NCBI GenBank assembly: GCA_016208765.1
Contig: JACQXK010000004.1
Location: 20,243 to 84,242 of the forward strand
Origin: Candidatus Omnitrophota bacterium
GTDB taxonomy: Bacteria; Omnitrophota; Gorgyraeia; Gygaellales; Profunditerraquicolaceae
Length of the DNA stretch: 64,000 bases
Direction of reading: 5' to 3'
The notes beneath the pieces were generated by a model, which was not told the DNA's origin, made no database searches, and saw nothing but the letters and a program-made list of their open reading frames with translations. A program made the position numbers and the translations under genes. This document shows, piece by piece, positions 46,341 through 62,491 of this stretch. Position 1 is the stretch's first letter; every line of letters begins with the position of its first letter.

Positions 46341-46604
46341 CTAATCACTCACTTTTTCCAGAAGCAAAACTACCTGATTATTAAACACTTGCAGAAACCC
46401 ATTTCCCATTGATAAAAATAAGCTCTTGTTATTACTGCTGTCTTTTAAAACAATCTTCCCTTTAACCAAATTACTGATAATCGGGGCATGATTTGCTAAA
46501 ATCTCCAAATAGCCGATTTCACCGGGTGCCACCACAGAAGAAACCTGGCCGCTAAAAACTGTTCTTTCCGGAGTAATAATCTTAACCTGAAAAGGCTTGT
46601 CCAT
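46341..46604 (-). CDS. atpC: F-type ATP synthase epsilon subunit (short form, beta-sandwich domain only)
   Basis: VKIITPERTVFSGQVSSVVAPGEIGYLEILANHAPI. At 87 aa it lacks the C-terminal helical hairpin. Confidence 0.8.
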   Translation of the reverse strand: MDKPFQVKIITPERTVFSGQVSSVVAPGEIGYLEILANHAPIISNLVKGKIVLKDSSNNKSLFLSMGNGFLQVFNNQVVLLLEKVSD

Positions 46605-46616
46605 AATTTTAAGGCC

Positions 46617-48876
<2,260 letters not shown>

Positions 48877-48880
<4 letters not shown>

Positions 48881-50406
48881 TTCTTTGGGCCTTTCAAAAA
48901 TTCTTCTTTGAACAAAACTATAGCGGCATTTAAACGTTTTATCAGTTGATCGCTTAATTCTTTTTTATTTTCAATCTCCTGTACAATTTCAAGATGATTA
49001 TCATCCATAAATTTATAAAGGCCGGTTTCAAATCTTTTTATTTCAGCAGTAGGCAGATCATCTAAAATGCCGCGGGTAGCAGCATAAATAATCATTACCT
49101 GCCTTGAAACAGACAAAGGCTGATACTGGCCCTGTTTTAAAATCTCCGCCATTTTCTCGCCGCGGGAAAGCTGGGCCTGAGTCGTCTTATCAAGTTCTGT
49201 GCCAAACTGGGTAAAGGTTACAAGCTCCCTGTACTGCGCCAAATCAAGGCGCAATTTTGAAGCCACCTGGCGCATCGCCTTTACCTGCGCCTTGCCTCCG
49301 ACGCGCGAAACTGATAAGCCCACATTAATCGCAGGGCGCACACCTGCATAAAATAAATCAGCCTCCAGATAAATCTGCCCGTCGGTAATAGAGATCACAT
49401 TTGTCGGAACATAACTTGTAATATCCCCTGCCTGAGTTTCAATTATCGGAATAGCTGTAATTGAGCCGCCACCTAAATCATCGCTTAATTTTGCCGATCT
49501 TTCCAGAAGGCGCGAATGCAGATAGAAAATGTCTCCCGGATAAGCTTCTCTTCCCGGCGGCCTTCTTAAAAGCAAAGACAACTGCCTGTACGCCTGGGCG
49601 TGTTTTGACAAATCATCGTAGATAATTAAAACATCTTCCCCTTGATACATTAATTCTTCTGCCATAGCGCAACCGGAATAAGGCGCGAGGTACTGAAGAG
49701 ATGCGGAAGCCCGGCTTGAAGCGCTGACAATTGTGGTATATTCCATTGCCCCATATTTTTCTAAAGTCTCATGCACAGCCACAACACTTGAAAGTTTCCC
49801 TCCGATGGCAACATAAATACAATAAACATTCTTGCCTTTTTGATTAATGATCATATCCATGGCAATAGCGGTTTTTCCGGTCTGGCGGTCAGCAATAATA
49901 AGTTCTCTTTGCCCCCGGCCAATAGGAGTCATCGCATCAATTGCTTTAATTCCGGTTTCTAAAGGCTCACTTACCGGCTGACGCTCCACTACATTAGGCG
50001 CCTTTGCTTCTATGGGTCGGAATTTATCTGTATGGATCGGCTCTTTGCCGTCTATGGGTTTACCAAGGGCATTAACTACCCTGCCAAGAAGTTGCTTTCC
50101 CACCGGGACCTGGACAATCTTACCGGTCCTTCTTACGACATCGCCTTCTTTAATATCTTTATCGGGATTATCAGTACCGAAGATTACCACTCCGACGCTG
50201 TCCTCCTCAAGATTAAAAACCATACCCATGATCTTCTCGGAAAACTGTACAAGCTCTCCTGCCATAACATCATCTAATCCATAAACCCTGGCAATGGTAT
50301 CTCCTACCTGAATAACCGTTCCCACAGATTCCATGCGCAGGCGCGTTTTATACTGTTCCAGTTCTTTCTTAATAATTGAGGTTACTTCTTCCGGTTTTAA
50401 TGCCAT
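48877..50406 (-). CDS. atpA: F-type ATP synthase alpha subunit
   Basis: [12 protein letters not shown]-loop. 509 aa. Confidence 0.95.
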
Positions 50407-50407
50407 A

Positions 50408-50965
50408 TTACACCCTCACTGTCATTAGTTTCTCTTTAAGGTCTACTAATCTTCTTTTTACTGAACCGTCAATCACTGTGTTTCCGATAATCACCTGCAA
50501 CCCTCCCAAGAGACTTCCGTCTAAATCTATATAAAATTTAAATTTCCTGTTAAAATGCCTCTCAAGCGTATCTTCTATTTTCTTGATTGTTTCCAGCTCT
50601 AACGGAAAACTGATTTTTAATAAAACATCTTCTTCCCCTGCATGGGAAAAAGTAACCCTGATATATTCTGTAATATCAAGAAGCTTGTCAATGCGTTCCT
50701 TTTCAAGCAATAATTTCAGGAAATTTTTTGTCTCTTGAGAAAAATCCGCGCCCAAAACTTTCTCCACAAGGCTAAACTTTTCCCCAAGCCCCAGCACCAT
50801 GCCGCACAAGAGCCTGAAAAACTCAGGATTATCCCTGATAATGCTCTTTAGGTTTTTAAAATCTTCCACGGCCTTCTCCAGGCCTATGTTTTCTTTTGCA
50901 TACCCGATAAAGGCATCGGCATATCTTTTTACCACTATTTCATCTTTAATCTCACTGTACTTCAT
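50408..50965 (-). CDS. atpH: F-type ATP synthase delta (OSCP) subunit
   Basis: Position between atpF and atpA. Length and helical OSCP pattern. Confidence 0.75.
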
Positions 50966-51449
50966 CTAACCTTTCCAAGAAATCATTAACCAGCTTTTTG
51001 TCTGTCTCTTCTGTAAGCTTCTCCCTGAAAACCATTGAAGTCGCCTCAATGGTTAAATCAACAATCTCTTCTTTTAACTGCTCCTTGGCAAGAGAAAGCT
51101 CATGGCGGATGCTTGCCTTTGCATTATTAATAATATCCTGCGCCTCTTCATAAGCTTTTTTTCTTATCTGGTCATCAATCTTTCTTCCCTCTGAAATAGC
51201 CTCCTGAATCCTCTTGTGCGCTTCAGCTTCAATATTATTTAACTTTGCCTGATAATCCGCAGCAAGCTGCAAAGCTTCGGCCTTAAGCTTATCAGCATCT
51301 TTAATTTCCTGAGAAATTTTCCCTCTGCGCGCATCCAAAAAAGAGAGCGCCTTCCTCCAGAAAAATTTGCGCAAGATAAAAAACAGGATCAGGAAACTGA
51401 TTATCTGCGCGATTACCTCATTTGTGCTGATAAATTTCAGTAATTCCAT
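50952..51449 (-). CDS. atpF: F-type ATP synthase subunit b
   Basis: Single N-terminal TM then a long charged helix. Operon position. Confidence 0.8.
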   Translation of the reverse strand: MELLKFISTNEVIAQIISFLILFFILRKFFWRKALSFLDARRGKISQEIKDADKLKAEALQLAADYQAKLNNIEAEAHKRIQEAISEGRKIDDQIRKKAYEEAQDIINNAKASIRHELSLAKEQLKEEIVDLTIEATSMVFREKLTEETDKKLVNDFLERLDEVQ

Positions 51450-51469
51450 AACTCAAACCTTTCCACCTG

Positions 51470-51703
51470 TTATTGCAGTTTTCCCGAAAACATAAAAACT
51501 ACAACCAAGGCATATATGGTCAATGCTTCAATAAAAGCACAACCAACTGCCATGGTAATCAGGATCTTTCCCGAAGCTTCAGGTTGCCTGCCGGTAGCTT
51601 CCATTGCGGCGGCCACAGCCTTTCCCAATCCTATCCCCGAACCTAACGCAGCAATTCCCACTCCTATGGGAAGTGCAAATGCCAATGCTGTTCTTAAATC
51701 CAT
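51470..51703 (-). CDS. atpE: F-type ATP synthase subunit c
   Basis: Helix hairpin with GxGxGxG ([15 protein letters not shown]) and the conserved carboxylate E in AFIEAL. Confidence 0.9.
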
Positions 51704-51737
51704 AGTTTCCTCCTTGTTTAAGAATTACTTAACCGGA

Positions 51738-51838
51738 CTAAATGGGGGAGAATAGCGTCATGCCCGCAAATGCAGGCATCCAGGCGTTCCCATGGCTGGA
51801 TTCCCGCTTACGCGGGAATGACAATTTCTCCCATTGAC
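51738..51838 (-). repeat. Structured GC-rich repeat family R2, copy B (in the atpB-atpE intergenic region)
   Basis: The reverse complement reads GTCATTCCCGCGTAAGCGGGAATCCAGCCATGGGAACGCCTGGATGCCTGCATTTGCGGGCATGAC... This matches 13404-13504 and has a co-varying third hairpin. Confidence 0.75.
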
Positions 51839-51853
51839 TAACACATTACAGAA

Positions 51854-52651
51854 TTACTCCTCGTGTTTTAAAAATAAAGCAAAATATATTGTGCTTAACA
51901 AACTAAAAACAACTGCCTGCACTACTGCGGATATAATAACTATACAACTGGAAAATAGCAACAACCCCACTCCCTTTATGCCAAAACCGGCAATAGCCGC
52001 GAGCAGCATGTCGTCGGCAAAAATATTGCTTCTTAAACGAAGTGACAAACTAATCGGTTTGATTAATTCAGAAATAATATGAATAAAGAGCATAAACACA
52101 GGGAGAATTATTGTAAAAGCCAGTGCCCCCCGCGGTTTTCCCATAAGATGGTCAAAATAACCAAATAAACCTAATTCGCGGATTGCCAGATAATGTACGT
52201 AAATAAATACACAAAGAGCCAGGCCAAAGGTTGTAGACAAATTTGAAGTCGCTGATTTCATGAATGGGATCAGTCCAAAGAAATTCATGAAAAGTATGTA
52301 AATAAAAAGTGTTCCTATAAAAGGGGTCAGGCTTCTTCCTTTGGGCCCCAAGATACCGCAGACAAAATCATCTAATGACGCGGCGAGGAACTCCGCAGCT
52401 GCCTGCAGCCTGCCGGGTGTAATCTTTGGCCTGCGAAATGAGAAATAAGCAACAATAGAAAGAACGAAAACAATTATTAAAGAAAAAATTACTGTTTCCC
52501 ACCTGTGGAGAAACTTCCCCAACGCCGAGGACTCTCCTATGTGATTTACGATAATTTCAATAAAATTAGGAAATTCTAATTGCCTGGAGCTCTCTTTAAC
52601 CATTGACTTAAGGGTTATTGCGCCCTGATTTTCCTTCAACGCGCAAAGCAA
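51854..52651 (-). CDS. atpB: F-type ATP synthase subunit a
   Basis: Polytopic protein. The LSLRLRSNIFADDM segment carries the essential Arg of subunit a. Confidence 0.85.
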   Translation of the reverse strand: MLCALKENQGAITLKSMVKESSRQLEFPNFIEIIVNHIGESSALGKFLHRWETVIFSLIIVFVLSIVAYFSFRRPKITPGRLQAAAEFLAASLDDFVCGILGPKGRSLTPFIGTLFIYILFMNFFGLIPFMKSATSNLSTTFGLALCVFIYVHYLAIRELGLFGYFDHLMGKPRGALAFTIILPVFMLFIHIISELIKPISLSLRLRSNIFADDMLLAAIAGFGIKGVGLLLFSSCIVIISAVVQAVVFSLLSTIYFALFLKHEE

Positions 52652-52856
52652 GCTTTATGATCCTGATCGTTTCCATAAGCGCGGCAGCAAAACCGGCAAT
52701 TATAAAAACGAGCAACACAAATAATGGAAAATGAATTTTTTTTACCAAATAATCCCCGATAAAATATCCCGAAAGCGGCCCGGCAGCCAAAATTAAGGGA
52801 ATATACAAAAGCATCCCTGCGATTTTCACACTTTTATAGAATTCTATTCTTTTCAT
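52608..52856 (-). CDS. AtpZ/AtpI-like small membrane protein preceding atpB
   Basis: 82 aa with two TM helices. Position and size match atpZ/atpI of atp operons. Confidence 0.45.
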   Translation of the reverse strand: MKRIEFYKSVKIAGMLLYIPLILAAGPLSGYFIGDYLVKKIHFPLFVLLVFIIAGFAAALMETIRIIKLALRVEGKSGRNNP

Positions 52857-52980
52857 TCAAACGCTACTAAAGCAAAAAGCGCCTTTTGCCAAATACCGAT
52901 CAAAAGACGCCTATGTCTTATATTTATCTTCTCCTCTATACAAGTAAAAATACTGCCCCGCGGGTAACCTAAAATTACCC

Positions 52981-53502
52981 TTATGAGTATTTGCGGCACT
53001 TCAAAAAAGATAATAAAACCCTAATGATCATTAATGGGCTTGGCGGACAACCCGGTATGTGCAAAACAACCGGCAATATTTTATTAACCGCACCTTCTAC
53101 GTAGTACGAATCTTTAAAAACACCCCCGTCAAACGCGCAATCTCCGCAGGTAATCACGAATTTCGGCTCAGGCATTGCCTGATATGTTTTTTTAAGCGCA
53201 ACGAGCATATTCTTTGAAACCGGCCCAGTAACTAAGAGCGCGTCAGCATGCCGCGGAGAAGCAACAAAACTAACACCGAATCTCTGCAAATCATAAATAG
53301 GGTTATTTGCAGAAATTATCTCTGACTCGCATGCCTCGCATGAACCGGTATCTACTTCACGTATATTTAAGGACCTGCCAAAAGTACCCTGAATAATTTG
53401 CAGCAATTCCCCGCCGCACAATTCTATCTCTTGCGGCAAATCCAAATCAATATGCCGGGTCATCACTCCTTTTAAAATCCTATTTTTTAATATATGGCCC
53501 AT
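52981..53502 (-). CDS. NuoB-like / group-4 hydrogenase small-subunit-like FeS protein
   Basis: CGDCAFDGG and IPGCPPSP proximal-cluster motifs. 173 aa. Confidence 0.8.
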   Translation of the reverse strand: MGHILKNRILKGVMTRHIDLDLPQEIELCGGELLQIIQGTFGRSLNIREVDTGSCEACESEIISANNPIYDLQRFGVSFVASPRHADALLVTGPVSKNMLVALKKTYQAMPEPKFVITCGDCAFDGGVFKDSYYVEGAVNKILPVVLHIPGCPPSPLMIIRVLLSFLKCRKYS

Positions 53503-53504
53503 TT

Positions 53505-55082
53505 TTAGAGGTCGTTACCTGAATAAGATAAATCAAAACTTTTATTACAAACCGGAAAATCCGGAACAATATTCCCCAACACCGCATAAGACAACCCTTG
53601 CCAATTACAAAAAGACGCATCAACAATCTTGCATCTTTCAATTAATCCCCGGGAATCAGTTTTAAGCCAGTACAAAACCGGGCCTCTCCAGGCTTCTACA
53701 TAACCTAAGGCGCTCGCCTCTTTTAATACAGGAGAGAAATTAATCTTTTCGCCATTCTTTAATTTTGCCAGAAATTCCTCAATTAAACGGCAACTCTCTT
53801 TAAACTCAGAAACCCTCATGCGCAATCTCGCCAAAACATCCCCGGATTCCTCTATTGCCATTTTGAATCCTGCCTCTTTATAAACGCCGGGAAAATATTT
53901 TCTTAAATCAACGGGAATCCCTGAAGCACGGGCAGCAAGCCCGTTAACGCCGATATCTTTAGCAGTTTTTTTCTTCAATACTCCCGTAGAATCTACCCTG
54001 TCCATGAACGAAACACTGGAAAATAATATTTTTGTAAGTTCTGAAAAATCATATTTAATATTTTTAAGAAAAATACGGGTACTATTTTTCTTGTTTTCAT
54101 CTAAGTTTAGCGAAACCCCTCCCACAAGATTAATTTTTTTAAGATACCTGCTCCCACAGAGTTTTTCATTTAACTGCAAGATCCCCTCTTTTATTATCGC
54201 AGAGAGCGCCGCCGGAAAACTAAAGCCCACATCAGTAGCAATCCCTCCAATATCATTTACATGATTATACATCCGCTCAAGCTCTAAAAATATGGCCCTT
54301 AAATAAGCTGCCTCTCCGGAAACGGATACACCGCAAATCTTTTCACAGGCCAAGGCAAATGCGAGGCTATGAGCAAAAGCCGCATCACCGGATACGCATT
54401 CTGAGAACCTGATTGCTTCAACACAATTCCTGCCTTCAAAAAGTTTTTCCACGCCGCGATGCGTAAAACCTAATCTTTGCTCAAGATTAATAATCGGCTC
54501 TCCAGCAACGCTAAAACGGAAATGCCCCGGCCCGATAATCCCGGCATGCACCGGCCCAACCGGAATCTCAAAAATACCCTTCCCCTCTACCCTGGAAAAT
54601 TTATATTCACCAAGGCTGCCTTCCACTTTCTTTGTAAAATCCTTACGTAAAGGAAAATTTCCCTGCGGCCAAACCTCATCATGCAAACGCAGCCTTCTTA
54701 AATCCGGGTTGCCTTTAGGCTCAATGCCAAACATTTCCCAAATTTCTCTTTCAAAAAAACTGGATGAATACATATTTTGCGCCAAAGAGTCAAAATACGG
54801 AGTTTCCGAGGGAATATCTATACTCACAGTTATCCACTTGCTTTGCCTTAAATTCAGAAACACGCAATTTACAACAAATTTACCTGTTTTTTCGCGCTCA
54901 TCAAGCGCAAAAAGCATCACTACCGAAGACAAAAGAATTTTATGCAATGCTAAACATGCCTCCTTAAATATCTGCGGGGTTACCTTCATAATCAGCTCAT
55001 CAGCATAATTCTCTTCGCAGGAAATCACGCTAAACTGAGGAAACAGTTTCTTTACAGCTAAAATAATCTCTGAGCAAACCAT
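53505..55082 (-). CDS. Fused NuoC-NuoD-like 'large subunit' lacking the NiFe-ligating cysteines (Ehr-type)
   Basis: NuoC-like FFEREIWEMFGIEPKGNPDLRRL, then GPVHAGIIGPGHFRF...RLGFTHRGVEKL. Where hydrogenases have ERICGICxxAHS it reads SECVSGDAAFAHS. The C-terminal DPCxxC site is replaced by DASFCN. Confidence 0.75.
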   Translation of the reverse strand: MVCSEIILAVKKLFPQFSVISCEENYADELIMKVTPQIFKEACLALHKILLSSVVMLFALDEREKTGKFVVNCVFLNLRQSKWITVSIDIPSETPYFDSLAQNMYSSSFFEREIWEMFGIEPKGNPDLRRLRLHDEVWPQGNFPLRKDFTKKVEGSLGEYKFSRVEGKGIFEIPVGPVHAGIIGPGHFRFSVAGEPIINLEQRLGFTHRGVEKLFEGRNCVEAIRFSECVSGDAAFAHSLAFALACEKICGVSVSGEAAYLRAIFLELERMYNHVNDIGGIATDVGFSFPAALSAIIKEGILQLNEKLCGSRYLKKINLVGGVSLNLDENKKNSTRIFLKNIKYDFSELTKILFSSVSFMDRVDSTGVLKKKTAKDIGVNGLAARASGIPVDLRKYFPGVYKEAGFKMAIEESGDVLARLRMRVSEFKESCRLIEEFLAKLKNGEKINFSPVLKEASALGYVEAWRGPVLYWLKTDSRGLIERCKIVDASFCNWQGLSYAVLGNIVPDFPVCNKSFDLSYSGNDL

Positions 55083-56515
55083 ACAAGTTCCTTTTTAATA
55101 AATGGCAATACTGCGCCAAAAACGCAAACCTGAAAAAACAAAAATAAAAAACTAAGCTTAACGCTTAAAGGTTCTTTTATAACTGCCATATCCTTGGGGG
55201 TATTACCAAAAAGCATTTTACCGAAATGAAAAACAAACGCTCCAAAAATGACCGACAAGAATAAGAGCAACAAACCAGCCACCAAATACGAACCTTTAAG
55301 AAACGCCGCCGCAATAATTAAAAACTCGCTAAAGAAAATGGAAAACGGCGGAAAACCGGCAAGCGCAAACATGCCCAGAAGCACCATAATGCCGGTAAAC
55401 GGCATAACCTTAATTACCCCCCTGATCACATTCATATTATGTTTTTTATAAACGTTAATAATGTTTCCGGCGCCGAAAAACATCAATGACTTGGTAACTG
55501 CATGGCTATACACATGCAGCAATGCCCCAATCACGCCAAAAACCGGGCCCAAGCCAAATCCGACACAGATTATACCAATGTGTTCAATGCTGCTGTAAGC
55601 CAAAAGGCGTTTTAAATCTTTCTGCACAATGACAAACCCGCAGGAGATGGCCAAGGAAATCACTCCAAATAAAATCATCAGGTTGCCAAAATATGCAAAG
55701 CCAACACCTTTGACAACGATAATACCAAATCTTAAAATCGCATAAATTGCCGTCTTTAACAAAACTCCTGAAAGCAGCGCGCTTATTGGGCTGACTGCCT
55801 GGCTGTGCGCATCCGGAAGCCATGTGTGCATCGGGGCAAGGCCAGCCTTTGTGCCATATCCGACAAGAATAAATATAAATGCAATTTTAAGGATATTCTT
55901 ATCCAGAATATGCGCAACAGGGACCATCTCCTGCCAATTAAGGCTCCTTGATAACCCGGAAATAGCAAAGGCATAAGAAAAAAGTATCGTCCCTAAAAGC
56001 GCTAAAATTATTCCCAGCGAACAAATAATAATATATTTCCAGGCAGCTTCAACAGATTCTTTGGTATTGTAAAAACCCACAAGAAACGCAGATACAAGCG
56101 TGGTTATTTCAATGGAAACCCAGAGCATCCCCAGATTACTCACCGCCGGGACAAAAAACATAGCCAGGCAAAATAAATTAAAAAGCAGATAATAGATTCT
56201 TGCCTTCTTCTCGGTTATCTTTTCTTTATCTAAATCATTCCTGATATACCCGATAGAATACAGTGATGCGGCAAAGCTGACCACTGAAGTTACAAAAATA
56301 AAAAACGCGCTTAAAGAATCCAAATATATAAAACCTAAATAAGAAACAAAGCCTGCCGGGGCTAAAAAGAAAAGTTTACGCAATAAAATTATGCTAAAAA
56401 CCAGCACCATCAGATACCCTGCGGAGTTAATTATCCCGAATACCTTGGGCCTCTTAAAAACAAGCGCACACAAGATAAGTATAACCGGAATACCAAGAAT
56501 TAAAAATATCTGCAT
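55058..56515 (-). CDS. Complex-I/Mrp antiporter-like membrane subunit (NuoN/HyfF-like)
   Basis: WLPDAHSQAVSPISALLSGVLLKTAIYAILRF signature of the NuoL/M/N-MrpD family. 485 aa. Confidence 0.75.
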   Translation of the reverse strand: MQIFLILGIPVILILCALVFKRPKVFGIINSAGYLMVLVFSIILLRKLFFLAPAGFVSYLGFIYLDSLSAFFIFVTSVVSFAASLYSIGYIRNDLDKEKITEKKARIYYLLFNLFCLAMFFVPAVSNLGMLWVSIEITTLVSAFLVGFYNTKESVEAAWKYIIICSLGIILALLGTILFSYAFAISGLSRSLNWQEMVPVAHILDKNILKIAFIFILVGYGTKAGLAPMHTWLPDAHSQAVSPISALLSGVLLKTAIYAILRFGIIVVKGVGFAYFGNLMILFGVISLAISCGFVIVQKDLKRLLAYSSIEHIGIICVGFGLGPVFGVIGALLHVYSHAVTKSLMFFGAGNIINVYKKHNMNVIRGVIKVMPFTGIMVLLGMFALAGFPPFSIFFSEFLIIAAAFLKGSYLVAGLLLLFLSVIFGAFVFHFGKMLFGNTPKDMAVIKEPLSVKLSFLFLFFQVCVFGAVLPFIKKELVWFAQRLF

Positions 56516-56520
56516 GAATA

Positions 56521-57156
56521 TTATCCTTTTAAACGCGAAAGCTTATTCACATCTATATGAGTAAAAAGCTTATTGATCCTGTAAATAAAAAATCCCATAA
56601 TAACAACGCTTACAAATACGTCAAAAAATATGGCGATCTCCACAAAAAACGGCATTCCGCCGGAAACCGTGGCAGCAAGCAGGAATAATCCGTTTTCCAT
56701 CACTAAGAGCCCGATGATCTGGGATAACGCGGTAATCCTGAAGATCATCAGAAAAACACCGGTTAATATTGCAAAGAATGACACTGCCAGAACAACGACC
56801 TGGGCTTGGTTGCCGATAGAAATTATTTTCCCGGAAAGCGCCCACGACAAATAAGTGAGAAAAAAAGCGAACAACAAAGAAATTTGCACATTTAAAAGCA
56901 TCCCTACGTCCTCGCTGACCTTTATTTTCTTTATGATGCGGTATAAAAAATGCGGGATAATACATACCTTTATGAGAAACAATAACCCCGAAATAATATA
57001 CAAATCAAGCTGGCGCTCATTAACAGCAATTGAAAGCGTGGCCAGAAACAAAAAGAACGACTGAATACGAAAACTGCTGATTAACGCCGGAAGCCTTTTT
57101 GCGATAATCATCAGATAGGTTGAGACCAAAACCCCGAATAGAATTATAGCCTGCAT
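56521..57156 (-). CDS. Small polytopic membrane subunit (HyfE/NuoK-like)
   Basis: 211 aa with 6-7 TM segments. Position between antiporter-like subunits as in hyf/ehr clusters. Confidence 0.4.
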   Translation of the reverse strand: MQAIILFGVLVSTYLMIIAKRLPALISSFRIQSFFLFLATLSIAVNERQLDLYIISGLLFLIKVCIIPHFLYRIIKKIKVSEDVGMLLNVQISLLFAFFLTYLSWALSGKIISIGNQAQVVVLAVSFFAILTGVFLMIFRITALSQIIGLLVMENGLFLLAATVSGGMPFFVEIAIFFDVFVSVVIMGFFIYRINKLFTHIDVNKLSRLKG

Positions 57157-57157
57157 A

Positions 57158-58084
57158 TTAAATCCTTAAGATTGCACAGATTACAGAAATAACCGCCAAA
57201 ACAAAACCAAATCCAAGAAAATCCGCAACTCTAAATAAGCGCATCTTGGCCAAGGAAACCTCCACAATAGCAACCGCAATAACAATAATCATAATCCTTG
57301 CCAAATACCACATACCCCAGGAAATAAGCCCGGAGAAATTATTACAACAGCTAAAAGAAGCAATCGGAAAAATCAACTGAGCAATTACAAAAAACCAAAG
57401 CATTTGTTTTATATAAGCTGCCCATTCTATTAACGCCAAGCGCTTTCCTGAATATTCCAAAATCATTGCTTCATGCACCATGGTTAACTCAAGGTGCGTT
57501 TCCTGATTATCTACCGGTATACGCGAAGTCTCGGCGATTATCACCATAAATAAGGCAATCCCTGCTACCAACAAGGAAACAGGCACGGGATGCATGCCAA
57601 AAGACGCTGCAATCCCGGTTGAGCCAAATTGCAAAGATACCGAGAAAATTACCAGGCACACTGCAGGCTCAGCAAGGCTTGAAATAAACATTTCTCTTGA
57701 AGAACCCATCCCTGTGAAACTGCTTCCGGCATCAAGCGCAGCAAGTGCAAGAAAAAAACGCCCTAAAGCAAGCACAAAAATTAAAACAAAAAAGTCTCCG
57801 GCTCCGCCTAATGGGCTTTGTCCGATAAACATCGGAATCAATAACGCTGCTGTTAATACGCTGGCCATAACCACAAAAGGAGCAACGCCAAATACCCAGG
57901 AAGCTGTTTCAGAAATTACTTCCCTTTTTAAGAAAAGTTTCCTTAGGTTAAGATACGGCTGAAAAACCCCCTGGCCCTTGCGCATCCTTAATGTGTTTTT
58001 TATTTTGGTGATCAACCCGCTTAAAAAAGGAGAAAACAAAATAATAAATATTAATTGAATTATAGCCAGGGGTATTTTCATCAT
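57158..58084 (-). CDS. NuoH/HycD-like membrane subunit
   Basis: ...NTLRMRKGQGVFQPYLNLRKLFLKREV... matches the NuoH/HycD loop (R.GP....GLLQP.AD..KL..KE). 308 aa. Confidence 0.7.
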   Translation of the reverse strand: MMKIPLAIIQLIFIILFSPFLSGLITKIKNTLRMRKGQGVFQPYLNLRKLFLKREVISETASWVFGVAPFVVMASVLTAALLIPMFIGQSPLGGAGDFFVLIFVLALGRFFLALAALDAGSSFTGMGSSREMFISSLAEPAVCLVIFSVSLQFGSTGIAASFGMHPVPVSLLVAGIALFMVIIAETSRIPVDNQETHLELTMVHEAMILEYSGKRLALIEWAAYIKQMLWFFVIAQLIFPIASFSCCNNFSGLISWGMWYLARIMIIVIAVAIVEVSLAKMRLFRVADFLGFGFVLAVISVICAILRI

Positions 58085-58085
58085 C

Positions 58086-59915
58086 TTAGAACTTATTCAT
58101 GAATAAAATCAGCAAAAAAACGGTTACAAAAATATAACCCAGGTATAAATGAATACTGCCTGCCTGGATATTTCTCATTATTTTGGCAGTTTTAAAAACC
58201 GAACCTAACAATGGCTTATAAATGTATTTCTTAAAAACCATGGTTGTATGTGTTTCATAAACAAAAGATTTCACATGATAAAATGATTCCCTGATCTTCT
58301 CTGTTTTACGATAGGGCAGAAGAAAAAAACTAAATGCGATCCTAAAAGGTTTGGAAAATGCAGTCGCTGTGTATTCATTGCGCGCGTCTAATTTATAATA
58401 ACCGCAATCCCAAGTCGTATAAGTACGCGATTTATTCCTTAAGAATTTAATATAAAATATCCAGCCTATAAATAAGAAAACAACTAACGCGCATGCCAAT
58501 AAAGGCACGGAAAGATAAACCCCTTGGCCGGCCTGGGGCATTATTGTAAAATTATTCAGGCTAAACTTCATATTGCTGACATTAATTCCTGTTGCAGTTC
58601 CCGCAACCCTGGTGAGTAACTTTATAACAAAAGACGCCCCCAAGCCAAAACAGATTATCATTAAGGAAAGAAAAAACATTCCTATTCTCATAGAAACAGG
58701 CGCCTCTTTGGCGTTTTTGGCACTTTGGCTCCGAGGAAGCGCAAGAAATGTTATTCCAAAAGCCTTTACAAAACACGCCGCTGCCAAGGCGCTGGTTAAA
58801 GCAAGCATGCCCGCGCAAACAGTAAGGAATAACTTAGCGCTTACCGGCACATAAAAAGCTCCCCAGAATAACGCCTGCAAAGTCAGCCATTCGCTCACAA
58901 AACCATTTAAAGGCGGAAGAGCAGAAATAGCTATGGCGCCCAGCAGAAAACAAAATGCTGTCTGCGGCATAACCTTGATCAAGCCTCCTAATTTTTCCAT
59001 ATCTCGCGTTCCGGTTGCCTTATAAACACTGCCGCCGGATAAAAATAACAAGCCTTTAAAAATAGCGTGATTAACCAAATGATATAATCCTGCGACTAAT
59101 GAAAACACTGCCAGATATTGCAGGTTTAAACTTAAAAAAAACATCGCCGCACCTATCCCTAACAAAATAACCCCCATATTCTCAACGCTTGAATATGCCA
59201 GCATTTTCTTTATGTCGCTTTCCATCAAAGCGTAAACAATCCCCACCAAACAGGTAATTACCGCAAGGACTAAAACCAATCCTCCCCACCATAAAGAATT
59301 AACGCCCAGCAGAAATATTACAAACCTGATAATTCCATAAACCGCTGTTTTTATCATTACCCCTGACATAATGCTTGAAATATGGCTGGGCGCCTGCGGA
59401 TGCGCATAAGGCAGCCAAATGTGCATCGGCACAATACCTGCCTTGGTCCCGAATCCAATTAAGAGAAATAAGAAAACAAGGTGCTTAATTGAAGAAGGCA
59501 TAACCTGACAGGCATTTTTTATTGCCGTAAAATCAAAAGAATGCGCATGTTTATACAAAATTAAGAAAGCGGCAATCAAAAAAGCTGTACCGATATGCGT
59601 CATTACAATATAAATTGTCCCAGCCTGCACAGACTTTTCGTGTTTTGTATCAAAGACAACCAGAAAATAGGAAACCAAAGACATGATTTCCCAAGCCAAA
59701 AGAAAGATCAAGGCATTACCGGCAGTAACCACCAAAGACATGGATAATACGAAGATAGCAAGCAAAAACCAGGAAAGCTTGATTTTACCGACGGAATATT
59801 CGCCTTTTAGATAGCCAAAAGAGTAAATTGCAGAAGGCAGGGAAACAATAAAAATAACAAAAAGAAAAAACAAAGAAAGCGGATCAAATAATAAATTAAG
59901 GCTAAAATTTCCCAT
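58086..59915 (-). CDS. Complex-I/Mrp antiporter-like large membrane subunit (NuoL/HyfB-like)
   Basis: HIWLPYAHPQAPSHISSIMSGVMIKTAVYGIIRF. 609 aa. Confidence 0.8.
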   Translation of the reverse strand: MGNFSLNLLFDPLSLFFLFVIFIVSLPSAIYSFGYLKGEYSVGKIKLSWFLLAIFVLSMSLVVTAGNALIFLLAWEIMSLVSYFLVVFDTKHEKSVQAGTIYIVMTHIGTAFLIAAFLILYKHAHSFDFTAIKNACQVMPSSIKHLVFLFLLIGFGTKAGIVPMHIWLPYAHPQAPSHISSIMSGVMIKTAVYGIIRFVIFLLGVNSLWWGGLVLVLAVITCLVGIVYALMESDIKKMLAYSSVENMGVILLGIGAAMFFLSLNLQYLAVFSLVAGLYHLVNHAIFKGLLFLSGGSVYKATGTRDMEKLGGLIKVMPQTAFCFLLGAIAISALPPLNGFVSEWLTLQALFWGAFYVPVSAKLFLTVCAGMLALTSALAAACFVKAFGITFLALPRSQSAKNAKEAPVSMRIGMFFLSLMIICFGLGASFVIKLLTRVAGTATGINVSNMKFSLNNFTIMPQAGQGVYLSVPLLACALVVFLFIGWIFYIKFLRNKSRTYTTWDCGYYKLDARNEYTATAFSKPFRIAFSFFLLPYRKTEKIRESFYHVKSFVYETHTTMVFKKYIYKPLLGSVFKTAKIMRNIQAGSIHLYLGYIFVTVFLLILFMNKF

Positions 59916-59977
59916 TTTTCTTATTATCGCGGTAAGAAATGGCAGGACTTTTATCTATACCATCAAAAAGACACAGT

Positions 59978-60307
59978 CTACTTTTCTTTTCCTAAACTAG
60001 TTAAAACAGTAGCTGTCTTTTCTAATTTCTTACGTAACATTTCTGCTATTGGGCGCAAAACCCTGAATATCCCCTTATCTTCAATGGCATAATAAATAAC
60101 CGTACCCTGCTGCCTTGATTTCAATATCCCTGCTTCTCTTAGAGCCAATAAATGCCTGGAAAGGCTGGACTGGGGAATATTAAGGCCTTTGGCAATACCG
60201 CCTACTTTTTCTTCCTGTCTTTTAAGTAATTCTATAATTTGCAGCCGGAGAGGGTGAGCCAGAACTCTTAGAAAATCTGATTTTATTTTATATGCCAATT
60301 CTTCCAT
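59978..60307 (-). CDS. ArsR/SmtB-family HTH transcriptional regulator
   Basis: LAHPLRLQIIELLK...VGGIAKGLNIPQSSLSRHLLALREAGIL. Confidence 0.8.
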   Translation of the reverse strand: MEELAYKIKSDFLRVLAHPLRLQIIELLKRQEEKVGGIAKGLNIPQSSLSRHLLALREAGILKSRQQGTVIYYAIEDKGIFRVLRPIAEMLRKKLEKTATVLTSLGKEK

Positions 60308-60461
60308 TGTTAGTAAGCTGATAGCGAAGTCTAGACCTCCGCTACCGGTATTATTCCTTATTTCTCAATATTCGGATATATGGTAATTATACGAATTGTT
60401 TATAGTTTGTCAATATAATTTATACAATATTAAAAGCTTCATTACACTACATTGCATTAAC

Positions 60462-60616
60462 GGGTGGCTTGGCTTGATTCGAGCAGCACGTTAGAAAACT
60501 CTTGCGGGCATGGTTTTCCCGACTGAAAGTCGGGAAAGAGCACGAGTTTTCGCCCGAGTGCAGCCCCGACACGCCGGGGCGGGACAAACGGTGCTGCGAG
60601 AACAAGACAAGACAGG
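60462..60616 (+). repeat. Structured GC-rich element family R3, copy b
   Basis: GCAGCACGTTAGAAAACTCTTGCGGGCATGGTT-(hairpin TTCCCGACTGAAAGTCGGGAA)-AGAGCACGAGTTTTCGCCCGAGTG-(hairpin GCCCCGACACGCCGGGGC)-GGTGCTGCGAGAA. Shows G-C to A-T covariation relative to copy a. Confidence 0.7.
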
Positions 60617-60632
60617 ACCCATTACTTCATCA

Positions 60633-61058
60633 TCACTCAAGCCTGAGCTGGGCGCCTGCTTTAATCTGGTTCTTTTTGACAAAACCTGCGCTAACTTCTA
60701 AAACATACTTAGCTGGCTTGGCAGGAACAAGGCTTGGGCAAGAAGCCTGGCAAGGTTTTGCATCTTCTATTATATCAACAACTTTCTTATCTTCTGAAAT
60801 CCAAATTATATCTATAGGAATACGCATATTCCTCATCCAGAAACTATGCCTAAGCTCCTTTTCAAAAACAAAAAGCATACCTTCATTTTCTTTAAGTTCA
60901 TCCCTGAACATCAGGCCTTTTTGCCGTGTTTTATTTGTATCACAGACTTCAACCAAAACAGAGGCATTCCCTAAAGAAATTATTTTCTTTTTTTCTGCTG
61001 CTAAGCCCAAGGAAAAACAAACAAATGCCAAAATTAACAGCCACAAGATTATTCGCAT
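60633..61058 (-). CDS. DUF192-family secreted protein
   Basis: Signal peptide. GLMFRDELKENEGMLFVF...RIPIDIIWISEDKKVVDI pattern of DUF192 (COG1430). Confidence 0.7.
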   Translation of the reverse strand: MRIILWLLILAFVCFSLGLAAEKKKIISLGNASVLVEVCDTNKTRQKGLMFRDELKENEGMLFVFEKELRHSFWMRNMRIPIDIIWISEDKKVVDIIEDAKPCQASCPSLVPAKPAKYVLEVSAGFVKKNQIKAGAQLRLE

Positions 61059-61069
61059 AGATTATAAAA

Positions 61070-62491
61070 TTATTTAGACAGAAATTTATCTATATGGAAG
61101 GCGGCCTGGCGTCCTTCAGATATCGCCCAGACCACTAAAGACTGGCCCCGGCGCATATCGCCGCAGGAAAATACTTTTTTTACAGAAGTGCTGTAGTCAA
61201 GGCCGGTTTTTACGTTTCCACGAGGATCCAATTCAACAGCTAAATTTTCAAGAAGCCCTTTTTTCTCCGGATGTAAAAATCCCAAGGCAAACAGCACTAA
61301 ATCAGCCTCAAGTTCAAATTCAGTACCCGGGATCTCCTTGATCACTGGCGCGCCTTTGGCATCTTTAGAGAATTCAACACGCACGCAGGAGAGCTTCTTC
61401 ACCTCTTCGTTCTCTCCTATGAATTTTTTCGTAGAGATTGCCCATTGCCTCTGGCCTCCCTCCTCATGACTTGAGGAAACCTTAAAAATAAGCGGATACT
61501 TTGGCCAGGGCTGGTCGCAACTACGGCACTCCGGAGGCTTGGGCAGAAGCTCAATTTGCACTACACAGCTTGCTCCCTGGCGATGAGCCGTACCCACACA
61601 ATCTGAGCCGGTGTCTCCTCCGCCGATAACAACAACCTTTTTGCCGCCAGCATCAATCAATTCCTGCTGGCTGAATTTCTTTCCGGAAATTCGCTTATTT
61701 GCCTGTGTGAGATATTCCATGGCAAAATAAATCCCTTTTAAATACCTTCCTTCTACTTGCAGATCGCGCGGTCTACGCGAGCCGCCAGACAAACAAATTG
61801 CGTCAAACTCTTTTAATAATTTTGAAACCGGCAGATCTGTGCCAACATCAGTATTAACAGTAAATTTTATTCCTTCTTTTTCTAAAATAACAAGACGGCG
61901 GTCAATAATTTTCTTATCCAATTTAAAATCGGGTATGCCGTAACGTAAAATTCCACCCACCTTATCATCCCGCTCAAAAACAACTACTTTATGCCCAAGT
62001 TTATTAAGCTCATCAGCGCAAGCTAAACCTGAAGGCCCGGAACCAATCACAGCAACTTTCTTACCCGTGCGCTTCTTAGGCGGCCTTGGCTTAATATAAC
62101 CAGCCTTAAATGCATGCTCAATTATATCCAGCTCGTCTTCCCGGACAGTTACCGGATCATCGTTAATCCCTAACACACAAGCAAACTCACAGATTGCCGG
62201 GCAAATCCTGCCGGTAATCTCAGGAAAATTATTGGAAGCCTGCAATAAATCAACTGCTTTTTGCCATTGGCCGCGAAATATATAATCATTCCACTCTGGA
62301 ATATAATTAGCAACCGGGCAAGCCCAATGGCAAAATGGCGTTCCGCAATCCATACAACGCGAAGCCTGCTCCATGGATTTGTCTGCCTTGCGCAACAGAG
62401 AAACTTCAGAATAATCCTTAACACGCTCGCACACCGGGCGGTACTGCGCTTTTTCCCGCTTAACTTTTAAAAAACCCTTGATATCCCCCAT
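61070..62491 (-). CDS. gltD: Glutamate synthase small (beta) subunit-like NADPH oxidoreductase
   Basis: CMDCGTPFC...[10 protein letters not shown]...[11 protein letters not shown] FeS motifs and [25 protein letters not shown] fold. Confidence 0.85.

Follow-up and report, generated by a model that had tools for sequence, protein, structure and literature searches.

An Ehr-type gene cluster of Omnitrophota that lacks NiFe ligands and a ferredoxin-like domain and keeps predicted ion-translocation residues

Introduction

The Ehr (Ech/energy-converting-hydrogenase-related) complex was first named in Geobacter sulfurreducens (GSU0739-45), from which its subunit naming also comes (PMC7894505). In the literature, Ehr is an established class that is functionally uncharacterised (PMC6349859, PMC7894505), and the field's general view is that it links redox reactions in the cytoplasm to the movement of charge across the membrane (PMC6349859). 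The literature puts Ehr beside the group 4f [NiFe]-hydrogenase (Ehf). Marreiros et al. (2013) reportedly generalised the complex. Here, we describe a cluster of this kind in a 64-kb stretch of DNA from a Candidatus Omnitrophota MAG (hereafter, the window), on which an earlier note had been made from the sequence alone.

Results and Discussion

Identity of the gene cluster

Between 52981 and 59915, the minus strand of the window carries six intact, tightly packed ORFs at exactly the positions given in the earlier note; neighbouring ORFs overlap by up to 25 nt or are separated by at most 5 nt. We used Pfam and NCBIfam profile searches to assign the ORFs to families, and all six matched with E-values well outside the chance range. 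The first gene, ehrA (58086..59915), encodes a HyfB/NuoL-like antiporter-like subunit of 609 aa; it is followed by ehrB (57158..58084; NuoH/HycD-like, 308 aa), ehrC (56521..57156; a 211-aa HyfE-like small membrane subunit with a NuoK-like C-terminal half), ehrD (55058..56515; a HyfF/NuoN-like antiporter-like subunit of 485 aa), ehrL (53505..55082; a 525-aa fused NuoC-NuoD/HycE-like "large subunit") and ehrS (52981..53502; a NuoB/HycG-like small subunit of 173 aa), all on the minus strand. The earlier note had read the same order (NuoL-, NuoH/HycD-, HyfE-, NuoN-, NuoC-NuoD- and NuoB-like), and its likening of this order to a hyf-type operon holds: the cluster equals E. coli hyfB-C-E-F-G-I, that is, hyf minus A, D, H and J. 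An independent assembly, Logan contig L089, shows the same gene order over most of the cluster and into the start of the atp operon; it begins inside ehrA, which its gene caller cuts into two ORFs (314 and 254 aa).

We regard it as near certain that the six-gene module is an Ehr ("energy-converting-hydrogenase-related") complex, EhrA-B-C-D-L-S, and that it belongs to the Omnitrophota/Saganbacteria subclade of Ehr; in a neighbor-joining (NJ) tree, the Saganbacteria large subunit (L012) groups with the Omnitrophota clade. The cluster is an ordinary example of ehrABCDLS, an already known family whose function is not solved, which agrees with the earlier description of an Ehr-type, functionally uncharacterised module of unknown substrate.

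Membrane arm

EhrA matched Proton_antipo_M in Pfam (3.9e-57), and its top NCBIfam model was HyfB (2.6e-189, model positions 73-667); its N-terminus is ~70 aa shorter than in most EhrA. Residues E76, K158, K189, H283 and E342 correspond to the TM5 Glu, TM7 Lys, TM8 Lys, TM11 His and TM12 Glu of NuoM; the TM8 Lys is present in 57/63 family members, and the other four are each present in 62/63. EhrD likewise matched Proton_antipo_M (5.1e-50), with HyfF as its top NCBIfam model (5.9e-132), and carries E136, K223, K254, H338 and E397. Across the EhrD family, the Glu and His occur in 73/73 members, the TM7 Lys in 72/73 and the TM12 Glu in 66/73, and the TM8 site is mostly Asn.

EhrB matched PF00146 (NADHdh; 4.8e-32), with R35, R130, E139, D192, E199, E210 and R282 at the positions of E. 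coli NuoH R46, R148, E157, D213, E220, E228 and R293, respectively. The NuoH E-channel residues, together with an Ehr-specific TM5-6 loop, are 94-100% conserved in the family, and the loop itself (T-H-L-E-L-T-M-x-H-E) is kept in at least 94% of members. In EhrC (NF008556 HyfE, 8e-23; PF00420, 1.5e-05), the conserved residues Q32, K63, E154, E173 and D179 align with HyfE Q37, K68, E159, E178 and D184. Based on these alignments, the membrane arm keeps every charged residue that serves ion translocation in complex I and in the Hyf subunits.

Large subunit

EhrL matched Complex1_30kDa (6e-22) and Complex1_49kDa (1.2e-38) in Pfam, and NCBI calls P0001 and its orthologues "NADH-quinone oxidoreductase subunit C." These complex-I domains, and a predicted fold that fits E. 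coli NuoCD with a TM score of about 0.86, would suit a reading of the module as respiratory complex I (NADH:quinone oxidoreductase) in fragmentary or variant form. However, the AF2 model of EhrL (pLDDT 87.9, pTM 0.91) superposes better on E. coli HycE (7z0s_E; TM 0.94, rmsd 2.5 A), HycE also beats NuoCD in sequence alignment (E 3e-62 with HMMER vs 2.5e-32), and the top scores of the membrane subunits are Hyf models. In addition, NuoA, NuoJ, NuoI and NuoEFG are all absent, the CxxC of the small subunit is of the hydrogenase type and not the tandem Cys of complex I, and EhrL has G232 and I183 at the aligned positions where T. thermophilus Nqo4 has its quinone ligands Tyr87 and His38, respectively. 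The complex I reading is contradicted by these best matches, missing subunits, missing quinone ligands and CxxC type, and we find it scarcely credible.

The loss of the NiFe cysteines was checked twice, in the HMMER alignment to HycE 7z0s_E and in a 134-sequence MAFFT alignment. HycE SDRVCGICGFAHS pairs with EhrL SECVSGDAAFAHS, where the two cysteines are replaced by S231 and A234, and HycE LDPCYSCTD pairs with EhrL FDLSYSGND, where they are replaced by S519 and G522. All four NiFe cysteines are absent from EhrL, as the earlier note had stated in concluding that the protein cannot bind a NiFe centre. That note had taken DASFCN (residues 488-493) as the counterpart of DPCxxC; this segment aligns instead with HycE AATYAN, and the real counterpart is D-L-S-Y-S-G, a misregistration that does not affect the conclusion on cysteine loss. 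The former NiFe pocket is lined by family-conserved Ser-Gly-Asp ... Ser-x-x-Gly residues, and Cys229 stands in place of the motif Arg.

The beta1-beta2 loop of EhrL, VGPVHAGIIGPGHFRFS, is essentially invariant among Omnitrophota representatives, and Gly184 occupies a loop site that is Glu in other Ehr proteins and in hydrogenases; this replacement of the proton-relay Glu by Gly occurs in 119/120 orthologues. Judged from the alignments, the predicted coupling loops (EhrL beta1-beta2 and EhrB TM5-6) are essentially invariant.

Small subunit and the deleted ferredoxin-like domain

EhrS matched Oxidored_q6 (1.5e-28). As the earlier note had proposed, its FeS cluster motifs are kept: C55-x-x-C58, C122 (GDC) and C152 (GCPP) line up with the four residues that ligate the cluster in HycG/HyfI, and EhrS retains one [4Fe-4S] site. 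All four cysteines are kept in 65/75 small subunits overall, in 64/73 classified loci and in every Omnitrophota locus examined.

The same note had found no NuoI/HycF-type gene, and this also stands: ehrL directly abuts ehrS (stop at 53505, start at 53502), and no ORF of ≥50 aa across the 64-kb window contains a CxxCxxCxxxC motif. In relatives, a 2x[4Fe-4S] domain is fused onto the small subunit. The EhrS N-terminus, MGHILKNRILKGVMT, can be aligned both to HycF MFTFIKKVIKTGTAT and to the fused Fd-EhrS proteins at their own N-termini, and the 2x[4Fe-4S] domain is gone between this stub (residues 1-16 or so) and the core. The "missing" HycF/NuoI is a domain deleted from an ancestral HycF-HycG fusion, of which an N-terminal stub of ~16 residues survives.

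Conservation and nested cofactor loss

The Ehr cluster has ~70% identity across hundreds of Omnitrophota (120 representative clusters), its gene order is kept in >15 phyla, and the order ehrA-B-C-D-L-S is found in most of 80 related loci. Among the 120 Omnitrophota cluster representatives, 155/525 EhrL positions are invariant, which indicates purifying selection. A decaying relic, that is, a non-functional hydrogenase-derived pseudo-operon, would account for the loss of the catalytic ligands and of a whole FeS domain; however, it is contradicted by these conservation data, by the intactness of all six ORFs and by the invariant functional residues of the membrane arm, and Ehr protein expression has been demonstrated in Geobacter (PMC7894505). 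We give this explanation almost no weight.

All 7 loci whose large subunit has the NiFe cysteines also have a ferredoxin-like domain (both clusters in 5, degenerate in 1, a separate gene in 1). Among the 66 Cys-less loci, the domain has two clusters in 11, at most one in 15, is deleted in 37 (the class that includes the window locus) and is ambiguous in 3. Nine Cys-less loci, including CPR-like lineages and Methanosarcina, also lack the ligands of the last cluster, and 8/9 are in the domain-deleted class. An NJ tree without bootstrapping and motif counts from our own ORF calls indicate that cofactor loss over the 73 loci is nested, with NiFe going first, the ferredoxin domain second and the last cluster third. 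The nine loci keep the six genes, the loop GPxHAGIIEP and the C-terminal motif KS[FL]NLSYxGxD, so the shared conserved features are independent of electron delivery.

Regulator and genomic neighbours

A gene for an ArsR/SmtB-family HTH regulator, "EhrR" (59978..60307, minus strand; 109 aa, zero cysteines), matched HTH_5 (1.1e-13) and NF033788 (6.9e-22). Orthologues, which scored E 1e-40 to 1e-50 against an HMM made from those same orthologues, flank Ehr or 4f-type modules at 16 loci in several phyla, most often as the immediate upstream gene on the same strand. A candidate promoter at 60386..60413 (minus strand), 79 nt upstream of the regulator gene, is a 12/12 consensus match to TTGACA-16-TATAAT and the sole such match in 51300-61200; the overall number of promoter-like matches near the cluster is not above the shuffled expectation. 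The six ehr genes, the upstream regulator and its promoter (59978-60413) probably form one transcription unit. Between ehrS and an atpI-like gene, a stem-loop followed by a U-run (52877..52912, minus strand) appears in the MFE and centroid folds of 52850-52985(-), where the whole-region z-score is only -1.7; our terminator scan, which allows loops of at most 8 nt, missed it because the apical loop is longer than that when counted to the outer stem. It is a weak candidate for a terminator or attenuator.

A complete F-type atp operon, with a c subunit that lacks the Na+ motif, follows immediately downstream of the module. The sister CPR-like clade has 3 loci where atp genes adjoin the module or lie within about 5 kb of it; among Omnitrophota, the atp adjacency is not conserved. 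None of the scanned ORFs of the window carried an Fdh, NuoEFG, Hyp or Rnf domain, and the window contains neither an electron-input module nor a NuoI-like, NuoE/F-like or formate dehydrogenase gene. No redox neighbour recurs across the 80 loci.

Functional interpretation

The module descended from a hydrogen-producing enzyme and kept the ion-moving parts while losing the NiFe site and most of the electron wiring. With both the NiFe ligands and the HycF/NuoI-type 2x[4Fe-4S] domain gone, the electron-transfer chain is dismantled. We tentatively propose that EhrABCDLS is an ion translocator that has lost its redox drive and carries a vestigial or sensing cluster. The complex would no longer run a donor-to-acceptor redox reaction and would act as a proton/cation translocator in Mrp-like exchange or H+ homeostasis, with the EhrL/EhrS cap serving as a cytoplasmic gate or sensor seated on EhrB. 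The former NiFe pocket may be a polar ion- or ligand-binding site, and the remaining EhrS cluster may have a structural or redox-sensing role. The intact ion machinery, the purifying selection, the dismantled electron wire, the lack of a redox partner in the window and the 80 loci, and the position upstream of the atp operon all favour this reading, as do data on a distant member. Methylocystis "group 4f" genes rise 16-23-fold at pH 5, H2 evolution could not be demonstrated for them, and their reported motif is AARVS (bioRxiv 10.1101/2025.08.29.672306). This motif is Ehr-like, and the Methylocystis genes are a distant member.

Taken whole, this explanation of an Ehr complex with a dismantled electron wire, translocating ions without redox drive, has in our judgement just short of an even chance. 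Retention of the EhrS cysteines fits a working redox cluster equally well as a structural one. Ongoing catalysis in the pocket would likewise predict a strongly conserved cap with conserved loops, which counts against a translocator, as does the lack of conserved atp adjacency among Omnitrophota. To our knowledge, known Mrp antiporters require neither a NuoH-like subunit nor a ~700-aa soluble cap.

A serious rival, although we consider it rather unlikely, is a redox-driven ion pump in which reduced ferredoxin or another low-potential carrier docks directly on EhrS. The donor would sit at the former HycF position and reduce the single [4Fe-4S] cluster, and the remodelled EhrL/EhrS/EhrB chamber would be where an acceptor is then reduced, perhaps directly at the cluster, a mechanism also proposed for MBS; the resulting H+/Na+ export would feed the adjacent ATP synthase. 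The four cluster ligands, conserved across Omnitrophota loci, the conserved coupling loops and NuoH-like E-channel, and the adjoining atp operon are all consistent with such a pump, as is the field's view of redox-coupled charge translocation by Ehr (PMC6349859). However, EhrL has no acceptor-binding signature, given the replaced Nqo4 ligands and absent NiFe cysteines, and the proton-relay Glu is Gly. Furthermore, 8/37 domain-deleted lineages have lost the cluster as well with all else kept, and neither the window nor the 80 loci offer a ferredoxin or other redox partner in cis.

Formate data point to a possible redox link: in Geobacter, the abundance of Ehr is higher on formate (PMC7894505), and the Methylocystis genes are co-induced with formate dehydrogenases (bioRxiv 10.1101/2025.08.29.672306). 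Both observations would suit an FDH-Ehr complex, published as a proposal for Saganbacteria and Riflemargulisbacteria (PMC6349859), in which a formate dehydrogenase encoded elsewhere, equipped with NuoE/F-like subunits, supplies the electrons; the grouping of the Saganbacteria large subunit with the Omnitrophota clade also favours it. However, fdhA and nuoE/F-like genes were found neither in the window nor beside any of the 80 loci, and the window locus has lost the ferredoxin-like relay domain by which an FDH would connect to the EhrS cluster, making this arrangement improbable here.

Comparison with known systems

The window module shares all six subunit types with Geobacter Ehr (PMC7894505), and like known Ehr it combines a large subunit without NiFe cysteines, a small subunit with a [4Fe-4S] site and an absence of hyp genes. 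It differs from Geobacter-type Ehr, compared by description since the fetched loci included no Geobacter sequences, in its separate Omnitrophota/Saganbacteria subclade, the beta1-beta2 Glu-to-Gly change, Cys229 for the motif Arg, the shortened EhrA N-terminus and the fully deleted ferredoxin-like domain of EhrS. Group 4f is represented by the closest Cys-containing relatives (L042, L046, L058, L064, L075, L080 and L084), an assignment of our own. These have the same six-gene layout, large subunits 36-41% identical to EhrL, and the GPxHAGIIEP loop and KSF.L.Y..D C-terminal framework in common; unlike the window module, they retain all four NiFe cysteines and, in 7/7, a HycF-like ferredoxin domain, either as part of a fused small subunit or encoded by its own gene.

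Among solved structures, HycE of E. coli Hyc (formate hydrogenlyase; PDB 7Z0S) is the top match to EhrL (3.2e-62), ahead of Nqo4 (1.2e-39) and 6u8y_L (2.2e-22), and the gene order is that of E. coli hydrogenase-4 (Hyf). Unlike Hyf/Hyc, the window lacks HyfA/HycB, HyfD, HyfH/HycF, HyfJ and HycI, and has neither a NiFe site nor an FdhF partner. MBS/MBX of Pyrococcus furiosus and complex I are NiFe-less descendants of an ancestor common to Ehr and use chemistry at the NuoB/NuoD/NuoH junction to drive ion translocation (PMC6349859). Their sequence matches are weaker and, unlike the window module, they possess a two-cluster subunit of the NuoI type as well as a defined acceptor site; the quinone ligands are missing from the window module. 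The proposed functional analogue of Ehr is the Mrp-type multisubunit cation/proton antiporter, which resembles it in having two antiporter-like subunits with the full Glu/Lys/His set and a NuoK-like element, whereas Ehr lacks the MrpB, E, F and G types and adds a NuoH-like subunit and a soluble NuoB/C/D-like cap.

Gene content and order of the Ehr module

Based on Pfam and NCBIfam profile matches, six ORFs on the minus strand at 52981-59915 encode the subunits of an energy-converting-hydrogenase-related (Ehr) complex. In order, they are ehrA (HyfB/NuoL-like, 609 aa, 58086-59915; NCBIfam HyfB model, 2.6e-189), ehrB (NuoH/HycD-like, 308 aa, 57158-58084; PF00146, 4.8e-32), ehrC (HyfE-like, 211 aa, 56521-57156; HyfE-like match, 8e-23), ehrD (HyfF/NuoN-like, 485 aa, 55058-56515; 5.9e-132), ehrL (a NuoC-NuoD fusion, 525 aa, 53505-55082; PF00329, 6e-22, and PF00346, 1.2e-38), and ehrS (NuoB-like, 173 aa, 52981-53502; PF01058, 1.5e-28). 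Adjacent ORFs overlap by up to 25 nt or are separated by up to 5 nt. The operon comprises exactly six genes, three of them NuoH-, NuoCD-, and NuoB-like, with a Hyf-type membrane arm (NuoL-, NuoH-, HyfE-, and NuoN-like) clustered with the large and small subunit genes. A hyf-like gene order had been proposed in the earlier note, and our assignments bear this out: the order is that of Escherichia coli hyfB-C-E-F-G-I, i.e., hyf minus A, D, H, and J. A Logan contig from an independent assembly (L089) carries most of the Ehr cluster and the following atp genes in unchanged order.

Across the window (1-64000), the minus strand holds almost every non-nested ORF of ≥110 aa, and GC skew stays below zero in all 2-kb bins; together, these features suggest a single replichore for the whole window, with a strong gene-strand bias.

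The large subunit lacks the NiFe cysteines

Among solved structures, the best relative of the large subunit EhrL is E. coli HycE (7z0s_E, E 3e-62), with weaker matches to Nqo4 (1.2e-39), MbhL (1e-36), E. coli NuoCD (2.5e-32), and MbsL (2.2e-22). We found no solved structure closer to EhrL than HycE, which indicates that no Ehr complex has been solved so far. Both the pairwise alignment with HycE and a 134-sequence alignment place HycE SDRVCGICGFAHS opposite EhrL SECVSGDAAFAHS, and HycE LDPCYSCTD opposite EhrL FDLSYSGND; therefore, all four NiFe ligands are replaced, with S231, A234, S519, and G522 at their positions. These alignments confirm the previously noted absence of NiFe cysteines from the large subunit. 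The motif DASFCN, which had been equated with DPCxxC, was assigned in the wrong register because its partner is HycE AATYAN, albeit with the loss of the NiFe ligands still holding. AlphaFold2 modeled EhrL with a pLDDT of 87.9 and a pTM of 0.91, with low confidence confined to the beta1-beta2 loop (177-185) and the four C-terminal residues, and the model superposes on HycE with a TM score of 0.94 and an rmsd of 2.5 Å.

We aligned 130 full-length representatives drawn from the top 150 matches, of which 124 were classifiable; the NiFe cysteines are missing from 105 of these, and the other 19 retain all four. The Cys-less large subunits carry E-R-[IV]-S-G-D-x-[ST] at the site of RxCGxC and KSFNLSY[AS]GxD at the site of the C-terminal motif, and a 28-sequence cross-phylum alignment shows no variation at G232, D233, S519, and G522. 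Among other Ehr proteins, 97% keep the loop glutamate (HycE E193), as do 95% of the hydrogenases; in the Omnitrophota/Saganbacteria clade, it is replaced (glycine in 119/120 orthologues), and Cys229 occupies the usual position of the motif arginine.

One large-subunit subtype has S/A-G-D-E for C-G-x-C and asparagine for the next histidine, e.g., SERISGDETFSNS. It occurs in loci L029, L055, L059, L063, and L073 from Bacillota, L045, L054, and L067 from archaea, and L072 and L078. In the Bacillota members, it is accompanied by a ferredoxin domain with both clusters intact or by a standalone ferredoxin gene, and this subtype may possess a different, still redox-active pocket.

The small subunit and a deleted ferredoxin domain

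Alignment with HycG showed that the small subunit EhrS retains all four ligands of the proximal [4Fe-4S] cluster (C55-x-x-C58, C122, and C152), in agreement with the FeS site claimed for it in the earlier note. The reported lack of a NuoI/HycF gene was also upheld, as there is no space for one between ehrL and ehrS. In addition, the CxxCxxCxxxC motif is absent from every ORF of ≥50 aa across the 64-kb window.

In many relatives, EhrS is longer by 100-150 aa and begins with a HycF/NuoI-like 2x[4Fe-4S] domain. The N-terminus of the window EhrS (MGHILKNRILKGVMT) aligned as homologous to the N-termini of HycF (MFTFIKKVIKTGTAT) and of the fused proteins, and this segment then runs straight into the HycG-like core. 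The missing ferredoxin subunit is thus a domain lost from an ancestral fusion, of which the aligned residues identify a stub as the sole remnant. A BLAST-based count of group 4f hydrogenases (the Cys-containing relatives, by our own assignment) without HycF proved to be an artefact, because in these proteins the domain is fused to the small subunit.

Nested loss of cofactors across related loci

We classed 73 loci by their NiFe ligands, ferredoxin domain, and ligands of the last (proximal) small-subunit cluster, N2. The ferredoxin domain is present, fused or separate, in all loci that keep the NiFe cysteines (7/7). Among the Cys-less loci, the domain has two clusters in 11, is degenerate with at most one cluster in 15, is deleted in 37, and is ambiguous in 3. 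The domain-deleted class includes 29 loci with N2 ligands, as in the window, and 8 without them; this class therefore holds eight of the nine Cys-less loci without N2. The N2-less small subunits, which occur in CPR-like lineages, Methanosarcina, and two additional MAGs, are otherwise highly conserved.

Three to four of the four [4Fe-4S] ligands are gone from EhrS in L026, L032, L043, L049, L062, L066, L072, L078, and L086, with residues such as GSTNACE / GDDA / PGDP. These otherwise highly conserved genes lie within complete six-gene modules of MAGs labelled CPR/Patescibacteria and of two Methanosarcina genomes, one a complete chromosome (NZ_CP195119.1). These Ehr complexes appear to lack redox cofactors altogether.

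Conservation of the membrane arm

In EhrA, the TM5 glutamate, TM7 lysine, TM11 histidine, and TM12 glutamate are present in 62/63 sequences. The corresponding EhrD residues are found in 73/73 (TM5 Glu), 72/73 (TM7 Lys), 73/73 (TM11 His), and 66/73 (TM12 Glu), and both TM8 lysines are present in the window EhrA and EhrD. EhrB retains equivalents of NuoH R46, R148, E157, D213, E220, E228, and R293, and its TM5-6 loop contains an Ehr-specific motif, THLELTMxHE, kept in ≥94% of the family. The HyfE carboxylates are retained in EhrC. At the level of sequence, the ion-translocating arm and its coupling loops are intact and strongly selected.

Distribution and phylogeny

An exhaustive profile-free search identified 7580 EhrL homologues, and a pattern scan of one genome per GTDB species gave matches in at least 597 genomes. 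EhrL has a 100% identical counterpart in a Candidatus Omnitrophota MAG. Over its full length, it is ~70% identical to more than 100 cluster representatives, and nearly all of the named ones are Omnitrophota; 155 of the 525 EhrL positions are invariant among 120 Omnitrophota representatives. The best 80 loci come from Omnitrophota, Saganbacteria, Nitrospirota, Acidobacteriota, Rokubacteria/Methylomirabilota, Verrucomicrobiota, Bacillota, Actinomycetota, Chloroflexota, CPR/Patescibacteria, Methanosarcina, and ammonia-oxidising archaea. In most of these 80 loci, our own ORF and BLAST pipeline recovered the order A-B-C-D-L-S or S-A-B-C-D-L. A neighbor-joining tree of large subunits, which is unbootstrapped and built without the curated HydDB reference set, nests the window EhrL in an Omnitrophota/Saganbacteria clade among Cys-less clades, as expected for an Ehr protein; the leaf L001 in this tree is a neighbouring Ech-type large subunit and is to be disregarded.

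Two Nitrospirota loci (L030, 10001-19182, and L069, 4116-13393) contain two complete Ehr modules in tandem, with large subunits from different subclades (SGTS-type versus SGDT-type motifs). A Saganbacteria locus (L012, 614-10054) has ehrD-L-S only, and at the expected place of ehrA-B-C are two SNF2-family helicase genes and two ORFs (357 and 247 aa) lacking Pfam matches; such a layout could reflect truncation of the module, rearrangement, or chimeric assembly. Other Omnitrophota loci carry second complex-I-superfamily clusters within 10 kb of Ehr: a separate Ech-type cluster in L001 (18559-21578; ferredoxin, NuoH-, NuoB-, NuoC-like, and large-subunit genes) and a nuoN/L/M/J/K-like cluster in L002/L003 (15769-21590). 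In these loci, Ehr therefore coexists with such clusters and does not replace them.

Neighbouring genes, regulator, and ATP synthase

Among 713 clustered flanking ORFs, we found no conserved redox partner in cis; the clusters comprise generic families (histidine kinases, ABC ATPases, GGDEF proteins, efflux pumps) and an ArsR-family regulator. This cysteine-less regulator is the only specific recurrent neighbour of Ehr, occurring in 16 loci of several phyla, mostly immediately upstream of the module on the same strand. In the window, its gene (59978-60307, minus strand) is preceded by a perfect TTGACA-16-TATAAT candidate promoter. The palindromes seen there are weak and overlapping, so we do not claim an ArsR operator. 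Neither the 20 kb of the window nearest the module nor the 80 loci gave a match to HypA or HycI, and no Hyp domains were detected among the Pfam-scanned window ORFs.

The stretch 46341-52856, starting 124 nt past ehrS, is occupied by a complete atp operon (atpI-like, B, E, F, H, A, G, D, C), and the ehrS-atpI spacer contains a stem-loop and U-run that form a candidate terminator with a z-score of only -1.7. In a CPR-like sister clade, atp genes adjoin the module or lie within ~5 kb of it in three loci. Linkage to ATP synthase was rejected as a defining feature of Ehr, as atp genes occur in the fetched flanks of only 4/81 loci, and no Omnitrophota locus besides the window has them in its fetched flanks.

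The c subunit (51470-51703, minus strand) has the carboxylate E58 and Tyr63, and Leu26, Ala59, and Leu60 take the positions of the Gln, Ser, and Thr of Na+-binding c-rings; its residues thus indicate that the ATP synthase is probably H+-coupled. The 87-aa epsilon subunit (46341-46604, minus strand) consists of the beta-sandwich domain alone, without C-terminal helices. Directly downstream of the atp operon is an 1842-aa ORF (39249-44777, minus strand) with a phosphoglucomutase-like N-terminus (PF02878/PF02879) and ~1500 aa lacking a Pfam match. The ORF before it encodes 456 aa (44717-46087, minus strand), with a hydrophobic, signal-like segment at the N-terminus and likewise no Pfam match. Elsewhere in the window, a TPP riboswitch (RF00059, 68 bits; 7443-7552, minus strand) precedes two genes, one of the isochorismatase family (6824-7411) and one for a Thi4-family thiazole synthase (6048-6821).

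Possible function of the complex

The window Ehr has no catalytic metal site, no electron-relay domain, and no donor module in cis, and one cluster site is left. Family-wide features persist in lineages without any redox cofactor, and a common Ehr function driven by electron transfer is therefore unlikely. Canonical quinone chemistry is likewise not supported, because the quinone ligands of complex I (Thermus thermophilus Nqo4 His38 and Tyr87) correspond to I183 and G232 in EhrL. The reading that we favour, at somewhat below an even chance, is that Ehr translocates protons or cations and that its cap has a gating or sensing role. At pH 5, an Ehr-like cluster of Methylocystis was induced with no H2 detectable (bioRxiv 10.1101/2025.08.29.672306), which fits a role in ion homeostasis; however, the same cluster was co-induced with formate dehydrogenases (bioRxiv 10.1101/2025.08.29.672306), and the Geobacter Ehr is up on formate (PMC7894505). 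In the main rival model, a donor docking directly on EhrS drives ion pumping. The four EhrS cysteines are kept in all Omnitrophota loci examined, which keeps this model alive, albeit as a less probable one than the translocator.

Extending the translocator reading to the whole family gives a joint proposal that we regard as rather doubtful: Ehr would be a "fossil hydrogenase" turned cofactor-independent ion handler. The NiFe pocket would have been rebuilt as a conserved Ser-Gly-Asp ... Ser-x-x-Gly site that binds a proton or cation and gates the membrane arm via the still-invariant beta1-beta2 and TM5-6 loops. Electron input would be optional, with independent lineages losing the NiFe site, then the ferredoxin domain, and then the last cluster. 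The Omnitrophota complex in the window would be a late intermediate of this series, placed under a dedicated cysteine-less ArsR-type repressor and serving the adjoining H+-ATP synthase.

The nested loss yields a testable prediction, namely that ion translocation should outlast cluster removal, and it suggests Methanosarcina (no cluster), Geobacter, and Methylocystis as tractable test organisms. In evolutionary terms, a redox enzyme of the complex I superfamily can shed its redox chain yet retain the coupling machinery.

Comparison with known systems

The window module is a further clade member of the already known, functionally unsolved Ehr family. The Ehr-type identity proposed in the earlier note is supported by large-subunit homology, absent NiFe cysteines, a NuoB/HycG-like partner, and a Hyf-type arm. 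The name Ehr was introduced for Geobacter sulfurreducens GSU0739-45, together with the designations EhrA, EhrC, EhrL, and EhrS (PMC7894505); Marreiros et al. 2013, as cited in PMC6349859 and PMC4758237, generalised the class. Ehr is known from Saganbacteria and Margulisbacteria, for which an FDH-Ehr hypothesis was put forward (PMC6349859), and has also been recorded in Nitrospira, ammonia-oxidising archaea, and CPR (PMC7304191). Papers up to 2025 still give its function as unsolved, and our literature search found none that links Ehr to Omnitrophota.

Group 4f [NiFe]-hydrogenases have L1 RxCGxC and L2 DPCxxC-type motifs, whereas the window EhrL lacks both; they also have a 2x[4Fe-4S] relay domain, fused or separate (our own observation on 7 loci rather than a published definition), of which the window retains only the stub. 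Mrp antiporters share with the window the MrpA/MrpD-type TM5 Glu, TM7 and TM8 Lys, and TM12 Lys/Glu; however, they consist of seven subunits, MrpA-G, without NuoH-, NuoB-, or NuoD-like proteins, and the window module has all three types. Complex I (NDH-1) differs in its NuoA, NuoJ, and NuoI core, with or without the NuoEFG N-module: NuoA, NuoJ, NuoI, and NuoEFG had no match in the Ehr operon or its 20-kb surroundings.

The module also bears on annotation. EhrL and its orthologues are deposited as "NADH-quinone oxidoreductase subunit C," and in the main survey of Omnitrophota, PF00346 served as the marker for "respiratory complex I" (PMC10066038), a model that EhrL also matches. Therefore, some of the inferred "complex I plus F-ATPase" respiratory chains of Omnitrophota may be Ehr, without an NADH module or quinone site. 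The module is of value in correcting Omnitrophota "complex I" annotations and as one stage of a natural progression of cofactor loss, which makes the Ehr question experimentally approachable.
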